From IMG/VR virus record IMGVR_UViG_3300027801_002517, positions 93,370 through 157,369 of that record: 64,000 nucleotides of DNA. One strand, written 5' to 3'. The stretch is from a virus. This document shows positions 6,687 to 57,219 of the stretch, in pieces. Numbering within the stretch: position 1 is the stretch's first letter; each line of letters begins with the position of its first letter. The translations under genes were made by a program, and so were the position numbers. The notes below the pieces were generated by a model, which saw nothing but the letters and a program-made list of their open reading frames with translations, did not search any database and was not told the origin of the DNA.

Positions 6687-6705
6687 ATTAGGCTCCCGTA
6701 AAGAG

Positions 6706-6972
6706 TGGAGATGGGGGGAATCGAACCCCCGTCCTGTATAACCACAAATAATAATCTCATTCACATGTTTAGCCTCTAAGAGGCGATCTCAGCTTATACG
6801 ACAGTATATCCAGCTTGGGTTTACAGGGTGCTAGACAACCCCTACTGCTACGCAGCGAGTGCAAAACTAGTAGTTTTAGCATCTATTGTTTAGTCAGCTT
6901 TTTACGAGGCCCACTGACCAACCTCGACATGCGATCATTACCATTAATTATCAGTCAATTCCAGTCATCCCC
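6706..6972 (-). ncRNA. ssrA: tmRNA (SsrA), tag peptide (A)AKTTSFALAA
   Basis: Acceptor GGGGATG/CATCTCC-A with G3:U70; T-arm GGGGTTCGATTCCCC; PK1 CGAGG..GGTCAG..CCTCG..CTGACT; tag ORF 6880-6848 ending LAA-stop. Confidence 0.96.
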
Positions 6973-9125: not shown

Positions 9126-9197
9126 TGGGAATGCCCAGATTCGAACTGGAATCAAATGTTTAGAAGACATTTATGTTATCCGTTACACTACATTCCC
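9126..9197 (-). tRNA. tRNA-Arg(TCT), CCA not encoded
   Basis: GGGAATG/CATTCCC acceptor, AATGT-CTTCTAA-ACATT anticodon arm, TTCGAAT T-loop. Confidence 0.9.
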
Positions 9198-13316: not shown

Positions 13317-14741
13317 TTATACCGTTTGTAAAACTTTATTTGTATATTGTTCTTCAAACAATAGTTTTTGAGAATAGGTTTTTTTGTGACACTCTTTACA
13401 CAACATTGTACAATTTTTCGGAACTGTTAATCCTCCCTTACCATGAGGGATTATATGATGAGCATCCATATCATCTATGTCAAATTGCTCATCACAATCA
13501 GAACAGTATCCATCTTGTTTGTGGTATTGTTTTTTTCTATCTACTTCAGAAAATTTTCGAGATGGATCTTTATCTGTTTTGTCAGTACAACAATCAAGGT
13601 GATCGTGTAAAATTTTATTTTGTAGCCCTCTATTGACTTTGGTATGCCCAGAAGTATTTACACGCAATGAGTATTCATCAAGATCATTTTTAACTTTGGT
13701 TGATTTTATCTCCGCTGCTGTCCTTATGTCTACACTTAAGTCTTTTAGATGGTTTAGTAATTTTTCTTTATCAATTTCTCGACCTTCTAGTATCCAGTCA
13801 ATAATTACAACATTTAATGCATAAAAATTTGAACCTTTTGCAAATCTAGTTGATTTAAGTCCTACTGTTTGATCAAAGAGAAATTTCATAATCTCTAAAC
13901 TTTTCTTGATATTTTTTATAAGTTTGAACATATCTATATCTTCTTCATTGTTTTTAAAATATTTAAACACGTTCGCAACAGCCCACCCATTTAAATGTTC
14001 TTGATTATGAATGTAATATAAAAGTGCTGTTAAATATCTACCATCCCACTGTCGAATAACCGAGGATGTTGATGAGGCTTTAATAAGCATATCGGAATAT
14101 GGTCCATCAACACCAGTAAATGGCCGGAGGAAATCCTTAACTAAGGGTGTATCTCTATATTTTGATCTTAGTTTTTCTTGATCATTAAGATTTTCGCTTT
14201 GATTATATGATTGAAATAAAGCATCGATAAGATTTTTAATCTCAATCTCATTCACCCCATATGTTTCATATATAATTACAGTTATCTGCTTATCAAGAAA
14301 ACTTTTTCGGTTCGACTCATTAACGTCTTCCCATTTCTTTGCTTCTAGTTTATCAATAAAAAGATCAGGTAGAGTCGATAACTCTTTAGATAAAGAATAA
14401 ATGTTATGTATATAATCTTTTATACTAGAAGCTCTCTGTAGTCCATCAATTACTTCATAGTAAACTTCGCAAGCTTCCGGTAAAAGATTTTTGCGTATAC
14501 CATACCAATTATCATCATATGGTTTTTTAGTTTCACTATCTCTATATCTTTTCACAAGATAAAGTGGGGGTATAGAAATTCCGCTCCAAATGGAGTTAAT
14601 GAAAGCAATCTTTCTGTCGGCTGCCCATACTTCATCTCTTTGGTGATCAGGATTAAGAACATAGTCACCGCTATCTATCTTCTTTAATAGATTTTCAATA
14701 GAAATTTTTTCGTCTGAAAAATCATAGTTTGGGAGTTGCAT
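13317..14741 (-). CDS. DUF262 (GmrS-like) domain fused to C-terminal HNH; GmrSD-like nuclease
   Basis: PDHQRDEVW, FINSI..GISIPP, VIDGLQR; C-terminal CSDC..AHHIIPH.KGG.T..NC..LCKECH. Confidence 0.85.
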   Translation of the reverse strand: MQLPNYDFSDEKISIENLLKKIDSGDYVLNPDHQRDEVWAADRKIAFINSIWSGISIPPLYLVKRYRDSETKKPYDDNWYGIRKNLLPEACEVYYEVIDGLQRASSIKDYIHNIYSLSKELSTLPDLFIDKLEAKKWEDVNESNRKSFLDKQITVIIYETYGVNEIEIKNLIDALFQSYNQSENLNDQEKLRSKYRDTPLVKDFLRPFTGVDGPYSDMLIKASSTSSVIRQWDGRYLTALLYYIHNQEHLNGWAVANVFKYFKNNEEDIDMFKLIKNIKKSLEIMKFLFDQTVGLKSTRFAKGSNFYALNVVIIDWILEGREIDKEKLLNHLKDLSVDIRTAAEIKSTKVKNDLDEYSLRVNTSGHTKVNRGLQNKILHDHLDCCTDKTDKDPSRKFSEVDRKKQYHKQDGYCSDCDEQFDIDDMDAHHIIPHGKGGLTVPKNCTMLCKECHKKTYSQKLLFEEQYTNKVLQTV

Positions 14742-14754
14742 AATTCATCCTTCC

Positions 14755-15831
14755 TTAATTTTTATTTCTTAACATCTTTAAACAAGATTTACCAATGGCG
14801 GTGCCGAGGCCACAAGGAACGGCATTACCTATCTGTTTGAACGCCTGTCCCTTTTTACACTTAAACATAAAAGTATCTGGAAAAGACTGTAGTCTAGCCA
14901 ATTCCCTGACAGTCATATGTCTTCCTTTTTCATAGTGGGTAAACACTGCACCATGATTTTCTTTAACTGTGTTACACGGTTTATCGGGATGACATTTCTG
15001 ATTGGCCTCACCATATCCAGAATAACTATCACCGTATTCAGTAGCCATAATTTTATCTGGGACCGATGGGTCAGTCTTATAAGCTCTGAACTCATGTGAA
15101 AATTCAATATCTTCCTCAATGTCTTTTAGGTCATCTATCGCATCTCTAACGGAAACCCATTTCTCCAAATCACCCGTACCAGACTCGTTGTGTGTCTCAT
15201 CTGGAAAAAGAACCTTGTTCTTAGACGCTATAATAATAACTCTCTCTCTGTGCTGCGGCACACCATAATTGGAAGCTTTTAATACTCTTGCTTCAGCGTT
15301 ATAGCCTAAATCAACAAATAGGTCAACCCATTTATCACAGACTGAGAATGTATATTCTTTATATTTTTTAAGTAACTTACCACTACTCAGCTTCTTTGAA
15401 TCTTTATTGATCTGTTTAAAAGTATCATCTGGAATATCAGATTCAAAATGATACATAGAAGCAAGACCTTTGACGTTTTCAATAACGCAAACATCTGGAT
15501 CTACTCTCTCCACAATATCAAAATAATCAAAATACAATTGTCCCCGATCATCAAATGGATCTCGCTTACCAGCATTGCTAAATGCCTGACAAGGAATTCC
15601 ACCAAGGATAACTTTTACTTCATTATCAATGCAGGCTTTTACAATAACATCTTTTATAGTTGGATCGGTAATACTTCCTTCGACTAAGTTACAATGAGGA
15701 TGATTGAACCTGAATGTTGAACATGCTGGCCCATCAAACTCATTAGCGACTCTGACCTGTAAACCATCTACCTTATCCATACCATAAGACATACCCCCAC
15801 AACCGGCGAATAAATCTAAAACGTTATACAT
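14755..15831 (-). CDS. DNA (cytosine-5)-methyltransferase
   Basis: DLFAGCGG, GGIPCQAFS, ENV, PQHRERV, RELARLQSFPD, QIGNAVP. Confidence 0.96.
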   Translation of the reverse strand: MYNVLDLFAGCGGMSYGMDKVDGLQVRVANEFDGPACSTFRFNHPHCNLVEGSITDPTIKDVIVKACIDNEVKVILGGIPCQAFSNAGKRDPFDDRGQLYFDYFDIVERVDPDVCVIENVKGLASMYHFESDIPDDTFKQINKDSKKLSSGKLLKKYKEYTFSVCDKWVDLFVDLGYNAEARVLKASNYGVPQHRERVIIIASKNKVLFPDETHNESGTGDLEKWVSVRDAIDDLKDIEEDIEFSHEFRAYKTDPSVPDKIMATEYGDSYSGYGEANQKCHPDKPCNTVKENHGAVFTHYEKGRHMTVRELARLQSFPDTFMFKCKKGQAFKQIGNAVPCGLGTAIGKSCLKMLRNKN

Positions 15832-18877: not shown

Positions 18878-18912
18878 TTGTCAACTCCTATTTATAATAA
18901 AACTTACTACAG

Positions 18913-18997
18913 TAGCCGAAGCGGGACTCGAACCCGCACGCCCATTACGGGCACAGGATTTTAAGTCCTGAGTGTCTGCCTATTCCACCATCCGGCC
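18913..18997 (-). tRNA. tRNA-Leu(TAA), long variable arm
   Basis: CAGGA-CTTAAAA-TCCTG anticodon arm; GCCCGTAATGGGC variable arm; GGTTCGAGTCC. Confidence 0.93.
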
Positions 18998-21747: not shown

Positions 21748-21820
21748 TGGGTCCAGTAGGACTCGAACCTACAACCAACGAATTATGAGTTCGCTGCTCT
21801 AACCATTGAGCTATGGACCC
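21748..21820 (-). tRNA. tRNA with CAT anticodon (probably Ile2/lysidine type, possibly elongator Met)
   Basis: GGGTCCA/TGGACCC acceptor; GCGAA-CTCATAA-TTCGT; no initiator features. Confidence 0.88.
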
Positions 21821-21829
21821 CAACCTGAA

Positions 21830-21904
21830 TGACCCTAGCGGGATTTGAACCCGCGTTGCTGGAATGAAAATCCAGTGTCCTAGACCTAACTAGACGATAG
21901 GGCC
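21830..21904 (-). tRNA. tRNA-Glu(TTC)
   Basis: CTGGA-TTTTCAT-TCCAG anticodon arm; GGTTCAAATCC. Confidence 0.92.
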
Positions 21905-21910
21905 GCATAA

Positions 21911-21984
<74 letters not shown>

Positions 21985-22028: not shown

Positions 22029-22552
22029 TCACCATCCCAACCAGTTAAGAATGTTCATCGCGAGGTAATTTCCATTACCGTCCGATTCCGCAATTATATC
22101 TTCTTCGTCTATGTCATACAACTCACCAGCCCCCAAAACTTCAACATTCTTGCGATGTGCTTCAAGTTCGGCAATTGCCTCGCCTTGTGATACTTCAGTT
22201 TCTTCGTCGATTTCGTCAAGTCTCATCTCAATTCTCCACAGGATAAGGGGGATTTTCAAACAACACTCTATCATTCTCTTTCTTCAATGTCTATTTCGAG
22301 ATAATCCCCGTCAAGGGAATCTCGTTGGGCATCGATCACATTATCAAGAATGTAATCCCCACGATCATCTTCGTCAAGTGCCAACCACTGTTTGCCGTCG
22401 ATAGTTTCCGGTCCTTCACTATCACCAATCTTGAAAAACAAAGTCTTGTCAGGATCTGCCACGACCCAACCAGAGAACTCAACCACAATGTTACTCATCT
22501 CAAAATCTCCAATAGGGGTAAAGGGATACTCCATTATATCATATATCGTCAA
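22029..22552 (-). other. Two small acidic hypothetical genes
   Basis: ORFs 22029..22274 and 22271..22552; probable true starts MRLDE and MSNIV after GGAG. Confidence 0.6.
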
Positions 22553-22601
22553 TAGAGCAAGCCCAACAGTACACTAATTAACAAGATAACACGAATTGAT
22601 G

Positions 22602-22679
22602 TAAGTCGTTTGGTGGTAAGGAGTTAGGGAAATCGGGGCGGGCCGCGTCGGCCCTAAGTCCTTTGGTGGCAAGGGTTTA
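22602..22679. repeat. Paired-palindrome element E1
   Basis: TAAGTCGTT-TGGTGGT-AAGGAGTTA, 28-bp GC linker, TAAGTCCTT-TGGTGGC-AAGGGTTTA. Confidence 0.92.
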
Positions 22680-22699
22680 GGTCAATTACTATTTTAAAG

Positions 22700-22740
22700 A
22701 AATAAGAAAACCCCGCCCGGCGAACGACAACCGGGCAGGG
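22700..22740 (-). terminator. Intrinsic terminator after the DUF932 gene
   Basis: CCCTGCCCGG-N10-CCGGGCGGGG-TTTTCTTATTT. Confidence 0.85.
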
Positions 22741-22755
22741 CACCCCTATTCTCAA

Positions 22756-23694
22756 CTATGCGATCAGTTCCAGAGCCAGTTTCTCAGCTTTGTGAACAGC
22801 CTGAGAATTCCCAGCTTTGAGAACCCTGTCGAAATCATTGTTGAATGACTTGCGTCGAGTTGCATCGTGCTGCTCGTATCCCTGCACGGCATTGTATGCA
22901 AGCCATGCGTTGGGATTCCGCAGGTCGAAATCGACGTTACTACGCCGCATCTCACCACTCAAACGCTTGAGAATCAATTCTGTACGATTCTTGTGAACCG
23001 TCACCGCACGTTTGCCAGCATCCTCGACAGGCTCTGGATAGATCTCATTCAAGAAATCTCGCATGTCAACTGTCTGTTGACTCATTTGCTTGATCATGGC
23101 AGTCAGATCGCACCACGATTCTTTGAGCATTGAGAATGCTCCGATCAGTTCATCCATTTGACCACGAAGACCAGAAGTGTGACGAATTGATCGAGAAAAC
23201 GACTCGACAGATTTCATCATTGACAGATTCAAACACATGTCACGGAAGAATCCAATCTCAGCTTTGAAGCCTCGACCATCATAACCACCGTTGACCATGA
23301 ATCGCGGGAAGATGTTGTCACCACCGGCAACATTGAACATATCACGACGATCCTCATTCGAAGGTGCAAATTGAACAAAATGACCATTGCGAAAGTGGCA
23401 ACGGACATTTGTATCACCGTCGAACGCTTCGGCAGCGGCTTCAGTGATTGCCAAAATGTCATCCGTATTGTGCGGAACATATCGGGCAGAAACTGATTTG
23501 CCAACACATTCGCTGTTGTCAGATCGGAACAATCCGAAATGAGGCGTTCGCATATTGTCGGGGCCGTACAGTGGAAACTTGTCAACCGAAAAGTTGAAAG
23601 TGTTCTGGACGGTTTCCAGTGCGGTGTCAGTTGTTAAAGTCGTCATTCTACGTTCTCCAAAAAAGGGGTTGTTTGCGACTCGTTGTCGCGTCAT
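22756..23694 (-). CDS. DUF932-family phage/plasmid protein
   Basis: FRSDN..CVG.VS.RY.P, NGGYDG, FRDMCLN, IRHT, WLAYNAVQGYEQH; probable start MTTLT at about 23646. Confidence 0.75.
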   Translation of the reverse strand: MTRQRVANNPFFGERRMTTLTTDTALETVQNTFNFSVDKFPLYGPDNMRTPHFGLFRSDNSECVGKSVSARYVPHNTDDILAITEAAAEAFDGDTNVRCHFRNGHFVQFAPSNEDRRDMFNVAGGDNIFPRFMVNGGYDGRGFKAEIGFFRDMCLNLSMMKSVESFSRSIRHTSGLRGQMDELIGAFSMLKESWCDLTAMIKQMSQQTVDMRDFLNEIYPEPVEDAGKRAVTVHKNRTELILKRLSGEMRRSNVDFDLRNPNAWLAYNAVQGYEQHDATRRKSFNNDFDRVLKAGNSQAVHKAEKLALELIA

Positions 23695-23700
23695 ACAGGT

Positions 23701-23729
23701 ATTATACCTTAATTATCGGCAGTTGTATA
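23701..23729 (-). promoter_or_regulatory. sigma70-type promoter with GCCGATAA in the spacer
   Basis: TATACA-N17-TATAAT. Confidence 0.7.
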
Positions 23730-23824
23730 GCTCAGCCTTAGTGATTAGGGCTTATTTCTCAAAGTTTTCCAAAGTATTTCGGCGGCAATCGGTAAAGATA
23801 GGGCAAGACATCCCAGAATCGTCG

Positions 23825-23902
23825 TAAGTCGTTGGTATCAAAGGAGTTACGACGCTCGCAGCCCGCCCCCGGCGTCCTAACCCCTTGCGGGGTAAGGACT
23901 TA
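23825..23902. repeat. Paired-palindrome element E2 (inverted relative to E1/E4/E5)
   Basis: TAAGTCGTT-GGTATCA-AAGGAGTTA, 28 bp, TAACCCCTT-GCGGGGT-AAGGACTTA. Confidence 0.92.
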
Positions 23903-23918
23903 CGGCGACGTTTTGCTG

Positions 23919-24191
23919 TCATTCCTCCCAGATTAAGTCATCGTCCGTAATTTCCCCATTCTCGTCATCCACCCCAAACAGAGTATCCCAACAATCCCCA
24001 CAAGTTCCCGAAATTAGTAATTCCCTCTCATCTTCAGTAAGATAATACAAAACATCCTGAATCAATTCACCCTCCTGCCATTCCTTGTAGTCCGATGGTT
24101 TTACCCGAATACTATGTGCATTCGAACATTTCCAACATTCTACTTTGACATTATCCATTGCATCACCTGTTTTATTCATTGTCAGAATCAT
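23919..24191 (-). CDS. Small Zn-finger hypothetical protein
   Basis: CWKC...LIQD...ERELLISGTCGDCWD. Confidence 0.65.
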   Translation of the reverse strand: MILTMNKTGDAMDNVKVECWKCSNAHSIRVKPSDYKEWQEGELIQDVLYYLTEDERELLISGTCGDCWDTLFGVDDENGEITDDDLIWEE

Positions 24192-24260
24192 TGTACTTTA
24201 CTCCAAAAATTACCACTGCGAACATAATAAAAATACACAAAAACAAATCACCGGCATTTT

Positions 24261-25031
24261 TCATGCGGTTTGTGCCTTCCCATAGCTAAACCTCTTTCCA
24301 TCTTTTTTGAGTTGCTTGATTGCGTCCGCTGCCTCAGATCCTTTCGGTTGAATGCCATGAATAATAAGGGCAAAATCATCATTTCCCCAAAACGGATTTG
24401 CTGCGTGTGTGTCATCGTGATCGACTTCCAAACCCAGCATATCGGCTTCCTCATAAGAGAACACTACTTTCGCAGATCGTAGACCATAGTCTACAATCAT
24501 ATCGTCACGGCGTCCACCATAACTTGCGGTAAGAATCAGATTATCGGGAATAATTTCCAGATTATCAACCCAATAAGGTAAAGACTTAGTATAAGCATAG
24601 AACAATCGGTCTGGATTCATGATTGCCGTTCTAATCCATGCTTCAAAGTATGCCGGGCTGAAGAAATCACCAGCAACGTGAATTCGGCAGATTCCCAGAT
24701 TCTTCGGCATCTGGTCACGAATAATCGAAACCATCTCACCAGCAGACTTACCACGCAAATTGTCAAAATTCTTCTTGCGAGAATTGTACACGTTCGTATA
24801 TGTGGCTTCCTGTGATGCACTGAAACAGCGAAATTCTGTTTTCTTGCCGTCCACAACTTTCCGCTTACCATCTACAATTTTTACCTTACTCAAACATTGT
24901 TCAGCAAACGGACACGAGTGACCAGACAATAGATCGAACGAATAAACTTTACGCTTATTCTCAAGATATACTTGCAGATCAGGATGATCGACCATTGCTT
25001 GCAATTTGTTGTTGGCTTTTGAGAATGACAT
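24261..25031 (-). CDS. Gp88-like phage protein
   Basis: GHSCP...C...CF, RIHVAGDFFS, FYAYTKS, NLILTAS motifs. Confidence 0.7.
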   Translation of the reverse strand: MSFSKANNKLQAMVDHPDLQVYLENKRKVYSFDLLSGHSCPFAEQCLSKVKIVDGKRKVVDGKKTEFRCFSASQEATYTNVYNSRKKNFDNLRGKSAGEMVSIIRDQMPKNLGICRIHVAGDFFSPAYFEAWIRTAIMNPDRLFYAYTKSLPYWVDNLEIIPDNLILTASYGGRRDDMIVDYGLRSAKVVFSYEEADMLGLEVDHDDTHAANPFWGNDDFALIIHGIQPKGSEAADAIKQLKKDGKRFSYGKAQTA

Positions 25032-25058
25032 AGTCGCTCCTCCAATAGGGGAAAAGTG

Positions 25059-25517
25059 TTACGCGGTGAATTGTACCACAACTTCGGAACCATAGCAATG
25101 GCCAATGGCCATATCCACGAATTTTGCACGTTCTATAGGTTCTCCGTTCGTATTTGCCAACACAAACGAATCGTATTTGTACGGGTTATAGGTGACTGGC
25201 TTGAAAGGTAGCGGCAACCGATTTTCCCACTGCTGTTTTGGATCACACCAAAAACCACGAACAAACGCATGAACATTCTTTTGAGCATTCTTCAACACTC
25301 GCAAACGTCCGGCTTGTGACACTATAAACTCAGCATCCTGCAAACAAATGTAATCTGTGTGAAATTGAACAATTCTGTTCTGCCGGATTGACCAGCAATC
25401 TTTGTGGAGATTTTTGTAAACTTCAATCGGTTTACTGAAATCCAGTTTGGTGCGACATAACTCAGCAAGTCTAGAATCCGTCTTATGAACATTAATACAA
25501 TGAGTTTTACGCGGCAT
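25059..25517 (-). CDS. Conserved-type hypothetical phage protein
   Basis: VYKNLHKDCWSIR, VSQAGR.RV...KNVHAFVRG, YNPYKYDSFV. Confidence 0.7.
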   Translation of the reverse strand: MPRKTHCINVHKTDSRLAELCRTKLDFSKPIEVYKNLHKDCWSIRQNRIVQFHTDYICLQDAEFIVSQAGRLRVLKNAQKNVHAFVRGFWCDPKQQWENRLPLPFKPVTYNPYKYDSFVLANTNGEPIERAKFVDMAIGHCYGSEVVVQFTA

Positions 25518-25549
25518 GGTCGTTCTCCGTTGAGGCTAAGATACTCCCC

Positions 25550-25578
25550 ATTATATCATATCGTCCATATGATGTCAA
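25550..25578 (-). promoter_or_regulatory. Perfect sigma70 promoter
   Basis: TTGACA-N17-TATAAT; GACGATA in the spacer. Confidence 0.85.
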
Positions 25579-25716
25579 GGACTTTAGTCAAAATTGGCTA
25601 ACTCGCTAACTCACTGGCTGTACTATAAAAACGCAACCCTTTAGGGTTAGATGGGACATCCCACACAATAGCAGGTGTGGTGCGAATGCCCAAGTTCTCA
25701 AAAATAACAATCGACG

Positions 25717-25794
25717 TAAGTGTATGGTATCAAAGGACTTACGACAAAACCGGCCCGCCCCGCCCGCCCTAACCCCTTACGGGGCAGGGACTTA
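25717..25794. repeat. Paired-palindrome element E3 (same orientation as E2)
   Basis: TAAGTGTAT-GGTATCA-AAGGACTTA, 28 bp, TAACCCCTT-ACGGGGC-AGGGACTTA. Confidence 0.92.
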
Positions 25795-25811
25795 CGGCGA
25801 CACAACACAAT

Positions 25812-27475
25812 TTACATGTCAACAATTTTCTTGGTCGAGAAACAGCGGGTGCCACCCCGAACCTCGTCAACGGTCAGATATGGACCATTCGGCCCCTTAC
25901 CCTTACCAACCACAACACCACTTACATTCCGAAGAATGTTAAACTTTCCATGTCGTGGATACATAAACTTTACAGTGCTACCAATTCGCTTGTGTGTCTT
26001 AATCATTAAACTTCTCTTTCTACGGTTTTAAAAGATACTTTAAACTCATTTCCTGCCTTCTTAATCATAACACCGTCGTGCAGGATTTTAACAACGGTGC
26101 CAATCTCTAGCTCAGTTCCTACTTTAATTATTGGTGTCTGATTCAAACTCACTCCTCATTAAAAATTGTGCTTGTTGTTCTTCCAATAACTCCATTGGAA
26201 TAAAGTCCGGAAACATTTTTACCGCCCAATTTGCAGCCTCTGAGTTATCGACGAATAACCTTTCATCAAATGAGTCGCAAGGTGGCTTTACAAGTATTTC
26301 ACTTCCCGTCGATGGTCGGATAAATTTGATATGTGTATACATTCTGTAACCTTAAAAGTATTGTGGCAAATCGCCTAACATCATAGTTTTCTTTGGTTGT
26401 TCTTTTATAATGATTGTTGGCCAAACGTAGTATGCTGGTCTGTGCATTCGGTATTGTGGAAAGTTAGTATAACCGCCGATCCAACTATAAAACACAGGCA
26501 CAGGTTGAACATAGATCTTTTCAGGTTCTGCTGATTCAGCAATTCCACCCATGATACAAAACAAAGCAATAGAAAGCAAGAGATTTTTCATGGTTCGCGG
26601 GTTTCTCTAATAATGTACAGGAATGCCACTAGTGGCAGAAGTGAAAGCAAAACGGTCATAATAATAATTATTCCTCATTTTCTTTTGCTTCAATCGCTTC
26701 CAAATCACTTTTCAGACTTTCCAACTCACGTTTCTTGTCGTTCTTGATTCGGTTCAGCAAACTATCAGCCAGAATCTGTTTGTCTGAAATTGACATAGGC
26801 ACGATGACTGTACTGCCGTCTTCACAACAAATCTCTAAGTTACTCCAACAAGTAATGTGCTTCACGTTTCCAACAGTGTACGTCGTTTCAATCTTCATCT
26901 TCTCAATCTCCAAAGTAAGGTTTGTGAGTGTGTATTGTAACACACTCAAAAGACAATGTCAAGTCTATTCCCAAAAGTTTCCAAGTTCAAATGAAAAACT
27001 AATCGAACCAAGAAAGACCCCCGAAGGGCGGGGTCTTAATTGTAACACATCCAATCTCAAAAGTCAAGTTCAGCGGCCATCAAATCCGCCAGATTGTCAA
27101 GTTCTTCCTGAAATTCTCTTTTCCGTCCGTCTTCCCATTCCTGCATGAATGCCATTTCTTCCATGTTGAAACAAAGTTGCTCGTTTGGGGTTTCTTCGCA
27201 CTGAATCTCATCAAAACTGTTCATCGTGTCAATCCTTCAAGTTGAAAAGTGTCTGAGTATTGTATCAGAACTCGCCTGATGTATCAAGCCCGATCTGTGT
27301 ATTTTTTCCAAACTTTCTTGATATATTTTTCAGAGCCGAAATGATGACATCCTACTGGCTCATCATTATGATTTATCCTGATGGCCCACTTTTTGCCGTA
27401 GTTGTAGAGTTTATAATCCCAGCCAGCGAGATGATCTGGAGCCGTTGCGACGATTTTGGTTGTGTTGTTTTTCAT
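25812..27475 (-). other. Cluster of small early-type genes with promoters at 26934-26962, 27039-27067, 27259-27287, 27482-27510
   Basis: TTGAC(A/T) or TTGATA-N17-TA(C/T)AAT; ORFs 25812..26006, 26124..26342, 26352..26591, 26588..26659, 26668..26949, 27284..27475. Confidence 0.65.
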
Positions 27476-27562
27476 AGTTGTATTATACTACTATTATCGT
27501 CCAAAGTCAATGCTGTTCATTACAAAAACACACAAATAATTAAAAGTTTTTAGATATTGACG

Positions 27563-27640
27563 TAAGTCGTTACTACCAAAGGACTTAGGAATTTTGGGGC
27601 CGGGCTTCCTCGCCGTAAGTCGTTTGATACCAAGGGTTTA
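27563..27640. repeat. Paired-palindrome element E4
   Basis: TAAGTCGTT-ACTACCA-AAGGACTTA, 28 bp, TAAGTCGTT-TGATACC-AAGGGTTTA. Confidence 0.92.
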
Positions 27641-27672
27641 CGTCAGCCGATCCGATTCCTTTAGGTGAGACA

Positions 27673-27786
27673 TTAGTGTAGGACAATTATTTCGAGAGCG
27701 ATTCCAGCCAGTGCGATTGTAGCACCAGTCAGGAAGAATCCAACCGCAACCGATACGGCAAATACTAGGTCAGGACTGTTTTTCAT
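27673..27786 (-). CDS. 37-aa single-TM peptide (not in ORF track)
   Basis: MKNSPDLVFAVSVAVGFFLTGATIALAGIALEIIVLH; AAGGA RBS. Confidence 0.6.
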   Translation of the reverse strand: MKNSPDLVFAVSVAVGFFLTGATIALAGIALEIIVLH

Positions 27787-27855
27787 TTTGTTTTTCCTTT
27801 GAGGGTGTGTGGGGTGCCATTGTTATCCTGTCTGGCTTCAGGTGTTGGTCGAATG

Positions 27856-28479
27856 CTATTCGCAACCGTATCGGTCACATTGTCGTTGTACCATGTCAGA
27901 GTATTTCTTGCGGCCTGCGACCCACTCGGGATCAGTACAACGCCAGCAACTAAACTCGTCATCGTAGGCGATTGCTTTAGCACCTTGCAGCCACATAAAA
28001 GCCAGCATTTCCCGAATGCTCAAGAAAACGCGGTTTCCGTCTTTGTTTGGGATTTCGCAGGAAAATCGGTCGTTCCAAGATACTCCAGCCATTGTTCTAC
28101 TTTCTGTTTTTCGTTCGTTGTTTGTGAGAGTGTATTGTACCAGATAAGAGGTGGAAAATGCAAGGTCAATTGCAGGCTAATTATAAACATGGTCAAGAGA
28201 ATCGGCGAATCCTGAGACTTCGTCGCCATCCTGATCGTTTCCGAAAAACTCGCCTGTAGTGGGATTGACTTCGTCAACGTGAATCCATCGGCCTTCGAAA
28301 ACCGCATCCTGTCCAGCTTCAATACCCCAGTTCGGTGTAACTTCTTCGTTGGCCGTTTCGGCCTTCTTCGCTGTCCAGCGTGCTTGGCGACGTGCCCATT
28401 TACGGGCGGTTGCTTCTTTGATTTTGATTGCTTGCTCTTGACTTGTCATCTTGTTTCCTTTTGTGTTGTTGTTTGTCAT
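27856..28479 (-). other. Two small early genes (27856..28092, 28177..28479) with promoters at about 28134-28163 and 28486-28514
   Basis: TACAAT -10 boxes, A/C-rich leaders, RBS. Confidence 0.6.
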
Positions 28480-28596
28480 ACGTGTATTGTACTATAATTA
28501 TCGACACACGTAAAGCCTGTCATCAGCATATGGGCGTTAATTTCCAAAGTATTCCAAAGTATTTATGGCATGGAATTTGCTTGCGGAAAATTGACA

Positions 28597-28674
28597 TAAC
28601 CCGTTGCTACCAAAGGACTTACGTCGCCGGGGGCGGGCCTTCCGTGTCGTAAGTCGTTACTGTGTAAGGGTTTA
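28597..28674. repeat. Paired-palindrome element E5
   Basis: TAACCCGTT-GCTACCA-AAGGACTTA, 28 bp, TAAGTCGTT-ACTGTGT-AAGGGTTTA. Confidence 0.92.
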
Positions 28675-28709
28675 CGTCGGCTTAGCTGATTCCTTTGGGT
28701 AGGACAGCT

Positions 28710-28796
28710 CTACCCTGTCGAGATAGTAGCGAAGATTATTGCAATTATTATTCCTGAGAATACAGCAATGGTTTCAATCCTGTTTTGCTTACTCAT
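28710..28796 (-). CDS. 28-aa single-TM peptide (not in ORF track)
   Basis: MSKQNRIETIAVFSGIIIAIIFATISTG, starting 3 nt after the upstream stop, GGAG RBS. Confidence 0.55.
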   Translation of the reverse strand: MSKQNRIETIAVFSGIIIAIIFATISTG

Positions 28797-28799
28797 ACC

Positions 28800-29459
28800 C
28801 TACTCCGCTGCTGTGCCGAATTGTTCACAGTAGCTGTCAAATGCTGCGAGGTATCCGGTGTCAACATTCTCAATGCTCTGGATTGGTTGAGCAGGATAAA
28901 AGGGATTGTAATTGAAAGTCTGATTGACAAAATCAATCTGATCTTCCCGAACACTTTGGTGATTCATTACCTGATCAGTGTCGAGATACTTAGCAATTAC
29001 GTTGAAGCGTTTCATGTTATTTCCTTTGGTGGTGTGTTGTGTGAGAGTGTATTCTACAGTTCAAAGCAGCGAATGTCAATCGCCTTGCCAAAAATCTTTG
29101 TGGTTTTTCGATGATGGTCGCGAGCGAAGATGATAGCGATTTCTTCATTCTCAGCAGAGATGATGCCTGATGTAGAAACTTCGCTGTTACCTGAAAGCGG
29201 TACGATTGTGAAAGAGTAGTGAAAGCGTTTCATTGTGTTGCCTTGTGTGTTGTTTGTTGTTTGTGATAGTGTATTGTACCATATGGTTCTGGTTGTTTCA
29301 ACCCTAATTCGTGTAGATTTCGTAAGTATTGCAGTTTTTGTGAGATTTCTTGTCTGATACGTTTACTGTGAGTTTGTGTGTTGGTTGGGGAAGAAACACA
29401 GGTTTGTCTGATGCATGTACTGTCAGTTTGTGTGTTGGTCGTGGTAGTGGATTGATCAT
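28800..29459 (-). other. Three tiny early genes (28800..29015, 29054..29233, 29304..29459), each with its own promoter
   Basis: Promoters 29051-29079 (TTGACA-N17-TAGAAT), 29273-29301 (TTGAAA-N17-TACAAT), 29503-29531 (TTGACA-N17-TATAAT). Confidence 0.7.
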
Positions 29460-29573
29460 TGTGTTTCCTTTGTTGTGTTGTCTTTGTCTTGTGTCTCTAA
29501 GTATTATATCGGCATCATTGCCGTTTGTCAATAGCTTTGCACAAGAAAATAAAAGATATTTCCCATATTGACC

Positions 29574-29651
29574 TAAGTCATTGCTATCAAACGACTTACG
29601 TCGCCGAAAGCCCACTAGTATCGCTCTAAGTCTATACTGTACAACGACTTA
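29574..29651. repeat. Paired-palindrome element E6
   Basis: TAAGTCATT-GCTATCA-AACGACTTA, 28 bp, TAAGTCTAT-ACTGTAC-AACGACTTA. Confidence 0.9.
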
Positions 29652-29799: not shown

Positions 29800-30170
29800 G
29801 TTTAGGTAGAGTCAAGATACAACCCGAGCATATAGCTACAACTGGTTACTACCAGTAGCTATTAACTTACCATCTGTGAGCGAACTGCAAAAGGATCATG
29901 ATTACCACTTGATGTTTGGGAGGATGCTTAAACCTCAACTCCTGAATTTTCAGTAAGTCCTCTGTCGCCAGAGCCTGATCCATTCTGTCCGATTGTTACT
30001 CTTATCGAGCAACGCTCGTAATTCTAATATGAGTACGGGTAATACTCATGCTAAACTCCAGACCATTCAGGTAATTTCTTTAAGCATTGCAGCTCGCCGG
30101 TCACACAACTGATTCGTCCACAGGACGAGATATTTGCCGGACATGGTTCAAAAAGAAATTTCCCTCTTGA
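29800..30170 (-). ncRNA. Candidate large structured ncRNA, family unknown
   Basis: ORF-free; nested long-range helices of 11, 9 and 7 bp; five hairpins; GCGA tetraloop and G-U pairs favour the minus strand. Confidence 0.6.
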
Positions 30171-30296: not shown

Positions 30297-31252
30297 ATGA
30301 AAAAAGACCCAGAAGAAATTACAACTATAAAAACCGTCGTTGTTGCGAGAGCCACTGCTGATCTCTGCGATGAAATTCTCGATGATTTACAAGTTCCTGA
30401 TCCACCAGATAAATCTATGGCTTCCCTAGTCGATGAGGCTGACGAATCCAAATTATCGAGGAGGAACGACGAGTGAAGAATAAACAAATCTATAATCATA
30501 GATCGCATTCACCAGCACGAGTCATTGATGACGGTATTGAACTCATGTCACCTAAGAATGCTAATGACATAGCACCATCAGATATTGATTTTTTAAATAA
30601 TTGTAATCTGTTAAGTGATACAATTCCTGCAGATACAAATTTTTTCTATTCGTTGCGATGTAATGATTCTACGACGGAAAAACTGCTTTTTCTTGAAACG
30701 GGCTTTGGGGAATTAAAACACAGAGACGGTAGAGTATTTCTACAACGAGAATATATTTTCACTGACTTTCACCCAGATTATAATGAAATCCCCGTCCCTA
30801 CTAAGAATCATTTGAAGCCCCTGCCTGATTTTGTTAAAAACTGCATAATTTCCACACATTCACCAGCAGAATATCAAGAATTACTCATTGAAGAGCATTC
30901 TGTTGTATGTTCTATAGATAAATTTATCCCAACAATAGTTCCCCTAGAGGAAGCCACCCTACTGGGTCGCCTTGATGGACGCATACAATCTATAGACAAA
31001 GATGAACTCAAGTTTATTCTGGGTGACAACATTAAAATCGCCGTCGAGGAATCAAAAAGTCCCCTAAAGTTACAAACGGATGAATTTTCTGTAAATGGTA
31101 AGAATTCTATTATAATGACTGACCAAATTCAGTTAAGACCTATGAGATCAAGGCCAAAGCGATTTTCCGTAGGTTCCCTATATTACAATAGGGGTAAAAA
31201 GACATTTGAGTTTCATGACGGGGACAAATGGAGAACATTACTAACAGAATGA
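30297..31252 (+). other. Two hypothetical genes (30297..30476, 30473..31252)
   Basis: AGGAGG RBS; coupled ORFs. Confidence 0.6.
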
Positions 31253-31276: not shown

Positions 31277-31786
31277 GTGCAAGTACCGGAAAACATGACA
31301 GAAGAAGAAACCGTTGAAATTATTCAGCGGGTTGTTGATCGCACAGCCCCTAAGTATACATTTCACGCATATACTATTGCGGATCTGAAGCAGGAGGCAT
31401 TTATTATTTGTATGGAGGCATTGCCTCGTTATGACGGGCTTCGACCACTGGAAAACTTTCTGGCCGTTCATCTTTCTAACAGAATGAAGAATTTTGTGAG
31501 GGACAACCACTTTACCCAAAGTGACGATCCTGTTCGTATTAATATAACGCAACCGGCTCAACTTGATGAATCTTATTATATGGAGTTTGATAAGAATAAT
31601 ATTACATATGAGGACATCGATTACCGCGACATGGCAAAATTAATGGATATTCATATGCCGCCATCTATGCGGCTTGATTATCTAAAGATGATTAATGATG
31701 TCTATATTGCAAAGCCACGGCGGGATGAGATTCAAATGATGATTGAGGATATATTAGAGGAGAATGGTTACTATGAAGAGGGGTAG
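31277..31786 (+). CDS. Phage RNA polymerase sigma factor (sigma70 region 2-like)
   Basis: DLKQEAFIICMEALPRYD..RPLENFLAVHLSNRMKNFVRD. Confidence 0.75.
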   Translation: MQVPENMTEEETVEIIQRVVDRTAPKYTFHAYTIADLKQEAFIICMEALPRYDGLRPLENFLAVHLSNRMKNFVRDNHFTQSDDPVRINITQPAQLDESYYMEFDKNNITYEDIDYRDMAKLMDIHMPPSMRLDYLKMINDVYIAKPRRDEIQMMIEDILEENGYYEEG

Positions 31787-32558
31787 GATATCTAAAGAAG
31801 AAGAAAAATTTATAGAATCAAGTATGGGCGTTATGTCTATAGTTGATATCTCGGAAAAATTAGATAGAGACCCAGATAGTGTTCAGCAATTTATTAAGCG
31901 GAAATTCAAGGTCGGACTTTCTGATGAGGAAGAAGCGGCGTATGATTTGGAGGAGCGTCCTTATTGGCATGACCTAAAACAGCAATTTACCGATGATGAG
32001 TTGGTAATGTTTAAATATCACTGGTCAAGAATCATTTCTCAGTTTAAAGATGATGTAATACCCACGGAAGAATTACAGGTAATTGATTTAATTAAGCTCG
32101 ATTTGTTAATGAATAGGTCTTTGAAGGCAAATAAGGAAAATTTAAATCAAATCTCGGCTTTTGAGGCTTTAGTTCAAGAGGAGAGAGCTAAGGATTCTGA
32201 TCAGCAGGACAGAGATCATATTTTTAACTTAGAAAGACAGTGTGCTTCGCTAAAAGCGTCGATGGAGTCACTAAACCGCGATTACCGCGACCTTCAGGAT
32301 AAAAAGAACAAGATGTTGAAGGAGATGAAGGCTACTAGGGAGCAACGGGTCAAAAGATTAGAGGACAGTAGGCAATCTTTTACGGGTTGGCTAACATATC
32401 TTATTAGTAATCCCGAACTTAGTAGGCAATATGGTATTCAGATGGAAAAAATGAGACTTGCAATGTCAAAAGAGAAAGAAAGGTTAAGTTCATACCATAA
32501 ATATGGAGATGGGCAGGTAGATCAACCATTTTTAACACCGGATACCGTCAAGGAGTAA
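31764..32558 (+). CDS. HTH plus coiled-coil protein (possible terminase small subunit)
   Basis: N-terminal SIVDISEKLDRDPDSVQQF helix-turn-helix; long coiled coil; function inferred from position only. Confidence 0.4.
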   Translation: MVTMKRGRISKEEEKFIESSMGVMSIVDISEKLDRDPDSVQQFIKRKFKVGLSDEEEAAYDLEERPYWHDLKQQFTDDELVMFKYHWSRIISQFKDDVIPTEELQVIDLIKLDLLMNRSLKANKENLNQISAFEALVQEERAKDSDQQDRDHIFNLERQCASLKASMESLNRDYRDLQDKKNKMLKEMKATREQRVKRLEDSRQSFTGWLTYLISNPELSRQYGIQMEKMRLAMSKEKERLSSYHKYGDGQVDQPFLTPDTVKE

Positions 32559-54291: not shown

Positions 54292-57219
54292 ATGGCTCTT
54301 GTAATATCAGATAGAGTAAAAGAAACATCGGTTACTACTGGTACTGGTACTATTACTTTCAATGGTACGTATGGTGGTTTTCAATCATTCTTAAGTGGCA
54401 TTGGTGATGGTAACACCACTTATTATGCTATTGAAAATGATACATCTTGGGAGGTTGGTATTGGAACATATACTCAATCTTCTAATACATTATCACGAGA
54501 TACTATTTTAAAAAGTTCTGATAGCAACAGTGCTATTTCTCTTAATGGTGTGTCACGAGTTTTTTGCACTTATCCCGCAGATAGAGCAGTTTATTTAGAT
54601 GCTGATGGAAACATTGAATTTACTTCATCTGGAGTTTTTGAGCATATTTCTGTTACTAGTCTTGCACAACTTAGTAATGTAAACACGAGTGGCTTGCTTA
54701 CAGTCAGTGGTGATTTACTATTCAAGCCTAATGATCAAAACAATAATATATTTACTATGCAGAGAAGTTCTTCTGGTAATTTTTTCCATGCCTATGTTGA
54801 CGATACTTATGATAGAACTCTTGCTTTACATACAGATGGAGGCACATCTCCTACTTGGACATTAGGTTTAAAATCAAATCCAAACTCTGTGGTTGAAGCT
54901 CCAAACCATGCTTATATTTATGGTGTAGATGGTGATATGGGCATTGTTGCCAATTCACATAATGATGTGACAATTTCAAATACGACTGGATTTAACGTAA
55001 AACATAAAAATTCTACTATTCTAAAATCAAGCACTGTTACTGGCGTACACATAGATTCTGTTGCGACGGCTTACCCCGCTCTGACGATTAATGGAGGGGC
55101 AGCTCTCGCTACTAATATCCAAGAGTGGACAACATCTGCTGGTAGTGTATTATCTGTTGTCGATAAAGATGGAAATTTTGGCATTGGAAAAGATAATGCT
55201 GCTTATGAGCTTGATGTTGATGGTAGTGGCAAATTTGGTCAAATATGTTTAACTACTGGTATCATTTTTCCTGACGGTACGGCTCAAACTACTGGGTTTT
55301 CTGGAGTATTTAACTACAGTGCTGATATTGCAAATAATACTGCTTCTGGAGTTTCGGATTCTGGATATTTTGAGCATAGAATTAATACTCTTCCAGGTTC
55401 CATTGATTACTCGTCTCAGATTCTTGCTAATAGCCAGTCTGGAGTTGCTATTTCTGGATGGGCTTTTCAAACAATAATTAATAGTGGTGTAGCAGTTAGT
55501 GGTTGGGCTGGCTCTACAATGTCTATATTAGATACCGCTATAAGCGGTTGGGTTACTGAGACATTCATTACTAGTGATACCAATACTACATATACAGCCG
55601 GTTCTGGTTTAGAATTAGTAGGTACTGTTTTTCATTCTACAGATTCCAATAAAATATTATCTAATAGTGCTAGTGGTGTTGCTATATCTGGCTGGGCATC
55701 TGAAACGATTACAAATAGTGGTGTGGCTGTAAGCGGTTGGGCTGCTTATGGAATTTCTGCTAATACAACAAATATATCTGCAAACACAGCAAATATCACT
55801 CTTAATGATACCGATATTGCTACAAATAGTGCTTCAGGTGTTGCTATATCTGGTTGGGCTGCACAAACAATTACAAATAGCGGTGTCGCTGTGAGTGGAT
55901 GGGCAGCTTATGGGCTTTCCAATAACACAACAAACATATCTACCAATACGGCGAATATTTCTTCTAATAATGTAGATATTTCTGCCAATACCGCTTCAGG
56001 TGTTGCCATTTCTGGTTGGGCTACACAAACAATCATAAACAGCGGAGTTGCCGTAAGTGGCTGGGCAAACGCAACATTTAGTACCAATACTAATGTTGAT
56101 TCTGTTAGTGGTTGGGCAAATAGCACATTTGATACTAAAGCAAACACTGCCTCGATTAGTGGTTATGCAGAAGCAATTGCTGGAGCTGGTGCTAGTTATA
56201 GTTGGTCTATTAGTGATGGTACAGTTGCCGCAGATATTATATCAAATACTCAAACTGTAGTTATTAGTGGTATCAGTGGTATAAATACAGAGTATGTTGC
56301 TGGAGGTAATCTGTTAAAACTTTCGGGTGGTAGTCTTAGTGGTTGGGCGTCAGAAACTATAATTAATAGCGGAGTTGCCGTAAGTGGTTGGGCAAATTCG
56401 ACTATGTCTGCATTAGACACTACTGTGAGTGGTTGGGCAAGTGAAACTATAATTAATAGTGGTGTAGCAGTTAGTGGTTGGGCTAATGGTACATTTAGTA
56501 CAAGTTCTCATGTAAGTAATGTCAGTGGCTGGGCATTACAGACAATAATTAATAGTGGTGTTGCTGTGAGTGGTTGGGCAAACGAAACATTTGATACTAC
56601 ATCTAATACTACTGCAATCAGTGGTTGGGCAAGCGAAACCATCATTAATAGTGGTGTTGCTGTGAGTGGCTGGGCTAATTCTACTATGTCTTCGCTTGAT
56701 ACTGCGATTAGCGGTTGGGCATCAGAAACAATCATAAACAGCGGAGTTGCCGTAAGTGGCTGGGCTAATTCTACATTCATTACCTCAGATACTAATACAA
56801 CTTATACTGGTGGTAGTGGACTAACATTAATTGGAACTGAATTTAATGTTTCGTCTTTAGGTGGTAGTGGATCACTTGAAGGTTTGATCGTTGATAAAGC
56901 TATTAAAAGTATAATCAACACTGAAGCAGATGGTGCAACTATTACATTTGATATGAATGAGGCTAATACTCATATGGCCACATTGGGTGGCAATAGAATA
57001 ATTGCTATCTCTAATGCAGCTTCGGGTCAAAAGTTTATGTTGAGGCTTAAGCAAGATTCTTCTGGTAGTCGTACAGTAACATGGTTTAGCACTATCTATT
57101 GGGCAGAAGGCGGTTCTGCTCCTACTCTTACTACAACTGCTAATAAAGCAGATGTGCTTGGGTTTTTAAGCACTAGCGGCGGATATTATGATGGGTTCGT
57201 GATTGGTCAAAACATATAA
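54292..57219 (+). CDS. Tail fibre-like protein with NSGVAVSGWA repeats
   Basis: N-terminal DRVKETS.TTGTG module; more than 20 SGWA units; C-terminal QD.SGSRTVTW..W..G.APTLTT..DV module. Confidence 0.8.
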   Translation: MALVISDRVKETSVTTGTGTITFNGTYGGFQSFLSGIGDGNTTYYAIENDTSWEVGIGTYTQSSNTLSRDTILKSSDSNSAISLNGVSRVFCTYPADRAVYLDADGNIEFTSSGVFEHISVTSLAQLSNVNTSGLLTVSGDLLFKPNDQNNNIFTMQRSSSGNFFHAYVDDTYDRTLALHTDGGTSPTWTLGLKSNPNSVVEAPNHAYIYGVDGDMGIVANSHNDVTISNTTGFNVKHKNSTILKSSTVTGVHIDSVATAYPALTINGGAALATNIQEWTTSAGSVLSVVDKDGNFGIGKDNAAYELDVDGSGKFGQICLTTGIIFPDGTAQTTGFSGVFNYSADIANNTASGVSDSGYFEHRINTLPGSIDYSSQILANSQSGVAISGWAFQTIINSGVAVSGWAGSTMSILDTAISGWVTETFITSDTNTTYTAGSGLELVGTVFHSTDSNKILSNSASGVAISGWASETITNSGVAVSGWAAYGISANTTNISANTANITLNDTDIATNSASGVAISGWAAQTITNSGVAVSGWAAYGLSNNTTNISTNTANISSNNVDISANTASGVAISGWATQTIINSGVAVSGWANATFSTNTNVDSVSGWANSTFDTKANTASISGYAEAIAGAGASYSWSISDGTVAADIISNTQTVVISGISGINTEYVAGGNLLKLSGGSLSGWASETIINSGVAVSGWANSTMSALDTTVSGWASETIINSGVAVSGWANGTFSTSSHVSNVSGWALQTIINSGVAVSGWANETFDTTSNTTAISGWASETIINSGVAVSGWANSTMSSLDTAISGWASETIINSGVAVSGWANSTFITSDTNTTYTGGSGLTLIGTEFNVSSLGGSGSLEGLIVDKAIKSIINTEADGATITFDMNEANTHMATLGGNRIIAISNAASGQKFMLRLKQDSSGSRTVTWFSTIYWAEGGSAPTLTTTANKADVLGFLSTSGGYYDGFVIGQNI

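Follow-up and report, generated by a model that had tools for sequence, protein, structure and literature searches.

This study concerns a window of 64,000 nucleotides, which is the whole stretch of DNA analysed and corresponds to positions 93,370 to 157,369, the last 64 kb, of IMG/VR record IMGVR_UViG_3300027801_002517, a 157,369-bp record of an uncultured phage with a completeness estimate of 94%. Between 22602 and 29651 of the window lies an array of six 78-bp elements (e1 to e6), each composed of two palindromic sites joined by a GC-rich linker. The array adjoins the point at which leftward genes give way to rightward ones, and the surrounding genes are small and without family match; family searches with the small open reading frames (ORFs) of the array gave no match. 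Four cargo genes of the array are recurrent ones, encoding a DUF932 protein, a GP88 protein, an L5-gp82-like protein and a protein of 90 amino acids (aa) with CxxC motifs. The elements, in which the proximal site is the one nearer the promoter described below, and a hairpin beside e1 were located as follows.

22602..22679: e1; proximal site 22602-22626, GC-rich linker 22627-22654, distal site 22655-22679
23825..23902: e2; proximal site 23825-23849, distal site 23878-23902; begins 16 bp past the stop codon of the 90-aa gene
25717..25794: e3; proximal site 25717-25741, distal site 25770-25794
27563..27640: e4; proximal site 27563-27587, distal site 27616-27640
28597..28674: e5; proximal site 28597-28621, distal site 28650-28674
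29574..29651: e6; proximal site 29574-29598, distal site 29627-29651; the most degenerate copy, first of the array and beside the strand switch
22710..22741, minus strand: terminator-like (intrinsic) hairpin lying after the DUF932 gene and before e1; no other element has a clear terminator upstream

A search of the window with the pattern TAAGTCSTT-N7-AAGGACTTA, allowing at most three mismatches, found 12 places against 0.11 expected from shuffles, and no shuffle reached 24. The 12 sites form six pairs whose starts are 53 bp apart in all six cases, and the six copies can be aligned without a gap. Each 25-bp palindrome has 9-bp arms around a 7-bp centre that is not kept as a palindrome; with the flanking bases the arms extend to 13-15 bp and the palindrome to 37 bp, and each half-site reaches about 15 bp with the consensus TYGACG-TAAGTCSTT. 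The 28-bp linkers have a GC content of 61-86%, compared with 37% in the window, and the elements are spaced at distances of 977-1892 bp. These results bear out what had been described in a first-pass annotation made from the sequence, namely paired palindromes 78 bp long with a rigid 53-bp spacing in six copies without indels, arms extendable into their flanks, a GC-rich linker of 28 bp and intervals of 1.0-1.9 kb. Its statement that all copies are intergenic is complicated by mechanically called ORFs that overlap e2 (23752-23922, minus strand), e3 (25720-26031, plus strand) and e6 (29304-29615, minus strand), of which at least the first is an artefact of DNA-repeat conservation, since its tblastn matches fall on other copies of the element.

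All four arms of an element represent one sequence, there is no dyad symmetry over its full length, and its two sites have centres that are not complementary to each other. The longest identical run shared by two elements of the genome is at most 15 bases, with a median of 9. A linker core, GGGGCGGGC, lies on the plus strand in e1 and e5 and on the minus strand in e2 and e3, and a variant of it, GGGGCCGGGC, lies on the plus strand in e4. When all 157,369 bp of the record were scanned with a weight matrix, these 12 sites and no others were recovered, all of them within the array. The 15-bp half-site was also matched strongly at three isolated places on the plus strand, 56054, 56381 and 56753, inside an ORF of 975 aa (54292-57219); these are probably a repeated coding motif.

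An exact search of IMG/VR found the motif in at least 120 stretches, and a looser scan of these brought out the same paired plan, recurring every 1-2 kb. Among the matches listed, the pairs were spaced at 53 bp (37), 52 bp (24), 50 bp (12), 49 bp (6) and 40-42 bp (10), and a contig usually had one spacing or two differing by 1 bp. In relatives whose TerL is 50-78% identical, the array adjoins a conserved block that encodes a sigma factor, a helix-turn-helix (HTH) protein and a GDP-mannose dehydratase and continues onward to TerL. Two complete distant genomes have about 24 proteins in common with this phage at 21-45% identity (TerL 23-25%); their half-site is nearly unchanged, and each again has one cluster of 9-11 kb. 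The sites are clustered in single arrays in genomes G003 (12 sites within 11 kb) and G007 (5 sites within 9 kb). A search of 185,579 species genomes of bacteria and archaea found the paired pattern only on short contigs, 17 in number, which all belong to metagenome bins from scattered phyla and are for that reason most simply regarded as mis-binned phage DNA; the paired element was not found in isolate bacterial genomes of this set. A full-text literature search found no published description of the paired element.

Each of the six elements was followed on the minus strand by a sigma-70-type promoter; the following list counts distances from the edge of the element as far as the -35 hexamer's first base.

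22533..22560, minus strand: e1 promoter; -35 TTGCTC at 22560-22555, TATAAT at 22538-22533 with TG before it; 42 bp from the element edge
23701..23729, minus strand: e2 promoter; TATACA-17-TATAAT, 10/12 consensus bases; 96 bp
25550..25578, minus strand: e3 promoter; TTGACA-17-TATAAT, 12/12, preceded by TG; 139 bp
27482..27510, minus strand: e4 promoter; TTGACT-17-TATAAT, 11/12; 53 bp
28486..28514, minus strand: e5 promoter; TTTACG-17-TACAAT, 9/12, with the CGATAAT spacer motif of the family; 83 bp
29503..29531, minus strand: e6 promoter; TTGACA-17-TATAAT, 12/12; 43 bp

The measured distances of 42-139 bp agree with the earlier placement of each copy 40-140 bp upstream of a minus-strand promoter, with the caveat that the e1 promoter has a weak -35 (TTGCTC) and an extended -10 and that the e5 promoter matches at only 9 of 12 positions. 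The same arrangement holds in the family, where 89 of the 131 paired elements had, within 250 bp, a strong promoter that points outward, on one side only in 88 cases, and only 11 of the 131 had a promoter pointing inward. Across 77 non-redundant cassettes the distances to the -35 cluster near 20, 32, 42, 53, 63, 74 and 95 bp, and a periodogram of them has its maximum at 10.5-10.75 bp; R is about 0.5 over the full set of 77, while the 62 cassettes of the 52/53-bp class give an R of about 0.6 (p about 1e-10, a rough value, as related sequences are not independent). The six distances in the window (42, 96, 139, 53, 83 and 43 bp) all agree with a single phase to between -1 and +2.5 bp (R = 0.80). 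Because 53 bp corresponds to five helical turns, both sites of an element lie on one face of the helix together with the -35. Spacing as a test of this phasing gave a divided answer among relatives, in which it varies (53, 52, 50, 49, 42, 41 and 40 bp): the step from 52/53 to 41/42 bp is one helical turn and fits, whereas 49/50 bp does not.

The elements have a fixed polarity toward the promoter. When 61 elements were oriented by their promoters, position 7 was C in three of the half-sites (52/61, 44/61 and 59/61), whereas in the promoter-side half-site it was G in 38/61 and C in 7/61; the variants TAAACC and TAACCC were concentrated in the distal site. A random orientation of the elements had been suggested by the G/C skew of the linker and was overturned by this orientation by promoter. 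Conservation extends through the stretch between element and promoter, which includes CGTCAAT, A-tracts around AAAAACTTT, C-rich bases before TTGACA and CGATA in the spacer, and the element is therefore part of a composite module of about 190 bp and not a free-standing repeat. The six window promoters share (G/C)(C/A)CGATA(A/T) in the spacer, beyond the hexamers, and the early promoters of relatives have C-rich bases before the -35 and GG after the -10.

The arms of the palindromes were then considered as possible stems. In a set of 446 sites, mirrored positions form Watson-Crick pairs just as often as columns varying independently would, the variant half-sites TAAACC, TAACTC, TAACCC and TAAGTG face a canonical partner and not a compensating one, and position 7 is often G·G or C·C. 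For the six elements of the window, the share of cells that pair is 76.9%, compared with 78.0% after shuffling, and their covariation score lies below the shuffle mean. Wobble-compatible and wobble-incompatible variants are equally frequent on both strands. Neither the 446 sites nor the six window copies showed compensatory changes that keep the stems paired; selection has therefore acted on the sequence of the arms and not on their pairing, which points to a protein recognising double-stranded half-sites. Rfam and ARAGORN identified no known RNA at the elements, and no T-run was found in the window after the hairpins or the linker, which is GC-rich and has a dyad of its own in some relatives.

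A possible role in recombination was analysed at the level of both enzymes and breakpoints. An integron- or shufflon-like cassette system had been one of two suggestions in the first-pass annotation, which had seen no recombinase gene in the window; the search was extended to the whole record and 19 further element-bearing records, and again none was found. PF00589 (Phage_integrase) had no match at E <= 1 in the phage's own genome and none at E <= 0.01 in the 19 further records (7 with a completeness of at least 90%); PF00239 (Resolvase) had no match in the own genome or the 19 others, and PF01797 (Y1_Tnp) was absent from all 20 element-bearing records, of which 7-8 per search were at least 90% complete and two had terminal repeats. 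For breakpoints, 36 indel or replacement events were collected from loci at least 80% identical, giving a total of 144 breakpoints. Only 5 of the 144 lay within 15 bp of a palindrome, which is chance level (3.0% of bases expected, p = 0.62), and 37 lay at promoter matches (26% against 19% expected, p = 0.057). The cassette-system suggestion thus found no support, since recombinase domains are missing from the 20 records and breakpoints occur at the palindromes at chance level.

In the one case in which indel junctions were resolved, they lay at promoters. Loci L038 and L096 (92% identity) differ by the presence or absence of a 258-bp gene of the 90-aa family, and the junctions coincide with two promoters, at their -10/start regions; one of these promoters is embedded in the end of that gene. 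The cargo genes (DUF932, GP88, gp82-like and 90-aa) are differently ordered in relatives, with elements between them in some genomes only; the order gp82-GP88 of this phage becomes GP88-element-gp82 in L040 and L044. Ends of blastn matches fell within 100 bp of an element more often than at random positions (17.8% against 9.4%), an excess that the intergenic position of the elements could explain by itself. Cassette shuffling is thus real, and it looks like an exchange between promoter modules of the kind seen in promoter-early stem-loop (PeSL) cassettes and not like crossover in the palindromes. No closer relative was found in which recent events in the phage's own array could be traced: a search with the GP88 protein gave no match above 63% identity, and the best among the compared loci was L025, at 66%.

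The interpretation that we favour, with a probability of about 0.6, is that each 78-bp element acts as an oriented, protein-binding double operator or enhancer pair that makes up one module with its early promoter. Each palindrome would probably bind one dimer on double-stranded DNA, and two sites five helical turns apart would place both dimers on the same side, where they could be joined into one complex. The module would run from the distal site through the GC-rich linker, the proximal site and the A-tracts to a near-consensus sigma-70 early promoter with CGATA in its spacer, and the bound complex would share a helix face with RNA polymerase at the promoter and control it. Negative control appears somewhat likelier than activation because the promoters are already near consensus, and could amount to early shut-off or to insulation of each cassette against read-through from the previous one. 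As a side effect, the repeated modules may supply short homologies at which cassettes are gained, lost or reordered. Tandem dimer-binding sites for transcription control had been the other suggestion of the first-pass annotation, and the lack of stem covariation, the helical register and the fixed polarity all argue for it. Several observations are at odds with the operator interpretation. No candidate binding protein is present in all element-bearing genomes, the 49/50-bp spacing class corresponds to a non-integral number of helical turns, the linker core GGGGCGGGC occurs on either strand relative to the promoter, and the non-independence of related sequences makes the p-values rough.

Among the other explanations considered, one is that the modules serve chiefly as homology for phage recombination, by which cassettes are shuffled, deleted or circularised, with protein binding secondary. 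PeSL cassettes of T4-type phages, in which a strong sigma-70 promoter of a hyperplastic region is combined with a stem-loop rich in runs of G and then of C (Arbiol et al. 2010, PMC2839356; see also Comeau et al. 2014, PMC4122927), provide the precedent, and the present elements resemble them in being a repeated intergenic module of a variable early region, with a strong sigma-70-type early promoter and a GC-rich dyad, placed upstream of small genes of unknown function among which cassettes are gained, lost and reordered. The varied order of the cargo genes, the excess of match ends near elements, the L038/L096 junctions and a RecA/UvsX-like protein encoded in the genome all speak for this explanation. 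The elements differ from PeSLs in having a pair of long palindromes, sequence-specific and rigidly spaced at 53 bp, phased and polar with respect to the promoter, whereas PeSL stem-loops, which act as terminators, have no constant position and may be inside the promoter or around it; moreover, this phage is not T4-like, as judged by the TerL and nucleotide searches. Homology alone would leave the 10.5-bp register, the polarity of the half-sites and a palindrome kept across phages of 21-45% identity unexplained, identical runs between elements of a genome are short, and breakpoints are not enriched at palindromes and only marginally so at promoters. A role driven chiefly by homology is unlikely, if still worth serious consideration. 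An architectural element comparable to bacterial interspersed mosaic elements (BIMEs) and repetitive extragenic palindromic (REP) sequences, at which host gyrase or an IHF-like bender would set a topological barrier between strong tandem promoters, seems improbable to us. Two palindromic units and a linker after gene ends are the layout of a BIME, the centres favour flexible TG and TA steps, and about 40-60% of the sites in the 40-42 and 50-bp classes fit the IHF consensus WATCAA-N4-TTR; however, none of the 12 window sites does so, 4 of them fitting only with a one-base shift, no RAYT-type transposase was found, the element was not found in bacterial chromosomes, and a topological role needs no polarity toward a promoter.

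An action of the element as RNA or single-stranded DNA, whether as a terminator or attenuator hairpin in transcripts, a processing site or a small RNA, some copies being driven by a sigma-54-type promoter, has some grounds in its position. Between most elements and the stop codon before them there is no terminator, so that read-through would transcribe most of them; at about 20 elements in relatives and at e5, a sigma-54-type motif would start transcription at the palindrome edge and through it; and PeSL stem-loops do serve as terminators. The arms, however, show no compensatory change and tolerate mismatches such as G·G at position 7 as the commonest state, wobble variants are equal on both strands, and neither a T-run after the hairpins nor an Rfam match accompanies them, all of which makes this explanation very unlikely. 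Site-specific recombination sites of integron, shufflon or Xer type, with a 7-bp crossover region and a recombinase that is host-encoded or of an unrecognised family, would account for the 9-13-bp arms around an asymmetric 7-bp centre, which is the layout of a tyrosine-recombinase core, and for the variable gene order among relatives. Two simple sites around a central region are also the plan of the 59-base element (attC), and the array has one such element per cassette. Unlike attC, no integrase accompanies the elements, the breakpoints lie elsewhere, the cassettes have promoters of their own, and there are neither R/L core pairs nor an overall dyad. With the centres of the two sites of an element not complementary, no Phage_integrase, Resolvase or Y1_Tnp domain in the 20 records (8 at least 90% complete), chance-level breakpoints, no paired element in isolate bacterial genomes, and promoter phasing and polarity that would be unexpected of crossover sites, we consider this explanation extremely unlikely.

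Dispersed operator arrays offer a parallel to the operator pair that we favour. In mycobacteriophage L5 (the gp71 stoperators, 13-bp asymmetric sites), P1 (the C1 operators), SPbeta (SPBRE) and RK2 (the KorB OB sites), one DNA-binding protein recognises many intergenic copies of a site in the early region, some of which act at a distance from promoters. The present array likewise consists of many copies of one specific site in the intergenic gaps of an early region, placed in a fixed relation to promoters. In contrast to those arrays, the sites are always paired with a GC-rich linker, and they neither overlap promoters nor lie inside them but are 40-140 bp upstream. At the phi29 p4 sites (A2c/A3 promoters) and with class I activators such as CRP, upstream palindromes need the correct helical face and dimer pairs are bridged. 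These cases differ from the array in having one control region instead of six copies and an unrelated site sequence, and the distances found here reach well beyond those usual for class I activators.

Candidate binding proteins were sought in the rightward block beside the array and in element-bearing relatives. The first three genes of the block are listed here.

30473-31252, plus strand: first gene, 259 aa
31277-31786, plus strand: second gene, sigma-70-family (ECF-type) sigma factor
31764-32558, plus strand: third gene, conserved HTH and coiled-coil protein of 264 aa with an N-terminal HTH and long helices

The HTH and coiled-coil protein was rejected as the binder; it occurs in only 13 of 24 element-bearing records, and its HTH has no counterpart in G003 or G007. 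Its structural model (predicted local distance difference test, pLDDT, 82) has as its best fold likeness the HK97 small terminase, which is weak (E about 0.5), and a 100-aa paralogue of the HTH is encoded at G000:C1:79962-80264 on the minus strand. The gp82-like protein, a cargo protein present in 7 of the 24 records, was also set aside. A second lineage with the same elements has a gene for a RuvB-like AAA+ protein with a C-terminal winged helix beside the first element, reading toward the array (examples are L014:1612-2586, L057:6474-7445, L033:7135-8061 and L023:6689-7618); this RuvB-like ATPase, which flanks arrays in that lineage and is absent from the genome studied here, was rejected as well. 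The proteins common to three distant genomes are metabolic, replication or structural ones. IHF likewise found no support in this window, since its site WATCAA-N4-TTR fits none of the 12 window sites and the 4 that come close need N5; the consensus is fitted by about 6% of sites in the 52/53-bp class. No HU/IHF gene was found in the 20 element-bearing records. The binding factor may be encoded by the host, which is plausible because the motif is nearly identical across phages whose TerL is only 23-25% identical and which share no phage regulator.

A second type of promoter-like motif was detected beside some elements. In the array it occurs at one position.

28566..28581, plus strand: sigma-54-type -24/-12 motif TGGCATGGAATTTGCT, between e5 and the e5 sigma-70 promoter, pointing into e5

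In related loci (examples are L124:3350-3417, L067:5436-5518 and L055:10477-10492), TGGCAC-N5-TTGCW had 72 matches against about 13 in shuffles, an approximately 5-fold enrichment, and 44 of the 72 lay within 150 bp of a palindrome. About 20 occupy a fixed place, starting 30 bp outside a palindrome and pointing inward, usually between the proximal site and the sigma-70 promoter. Several motifs stand in tandem at 26-bp steps in L124, and some in relatives are face to face. A reading of the palindromes as sigma-54 enhancers (upstream activating sequences), which would be pairs of activator sites 80-150 bp upstream of a -24/-12 promoter, was rejected, because the lone motif of the array points into e5 and has the palindromes downstream, and because the genome has no clear Sigma54_activat protein; this profile gave only weak general AAA+ matches in element-bearing records and none in this genome. 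We would also mention, as a speculation that is more likely wrong than right by a wide measure, that one conserved factor, possibly a host protein, might bind the paired palindromes and control divergent sigma-70 early and sigma-54 promoters from one face. If so, the sigma-54 promoter of some cassettes would fire back through the element toward the late genes, and one complex would silence the cassette and start transcription in the antisense or late direction, an undescribed phage-wide timing switch.

The paired elements would represent a precise and widespread cis-regulatory grammar for the early regions of large uncultured phages, which consist mostly of genes of unknown function without known control logic. 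For annotation, early transcription units and cassette borders can be marked directly in metagenomic contigs, and the 78-bp element can be used as bait for the regulator. If the factor is host-encoded, the motif could help to link these phages to hosts. The array also advises caution, in that recombinase-like sites between cassettes need not be recombination sites.

With regard to the affiliation of the phage, a nucleotide search of 50,697 cultured phage records gave no match, and the best TerL matches among cultured phages were to Microcystis and Bacillus phages at 25-29% identity. Rfam at the gathering threshold gave no match at 29826-30151, a stretch without ORFs that comes after e6 and before the strand switch. 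Within the array, the gene at 23919-24191 (minus strand) and its 15 homologues, in the arrays of 15 contigs, form a small family whose proteins have a length of about 85 aa and in many cases contain CxxC...CxxC; in one member, L038:4921-5172, the end of the gene holds a complete sigma-70-type promoter for the next gene. A gene for a GmrSD-N/HNH nuclease-like protein (13317-15831, minus strand) adjoins a C-5 cytosine methyltransferase gene. The phage also has a tmRNA, with the tag AKTTSFALAA, and five tRNAs, of which tRNA-Met, -Glu and -Asp lie immediately to the left of the array; the coordinates of these RNA genes, taken together, are as follows.

6703-6972 (minus strand), 9126-9197, 18912-18997 and 21748-21984 (minus strand): tmRNA and tRNA genes

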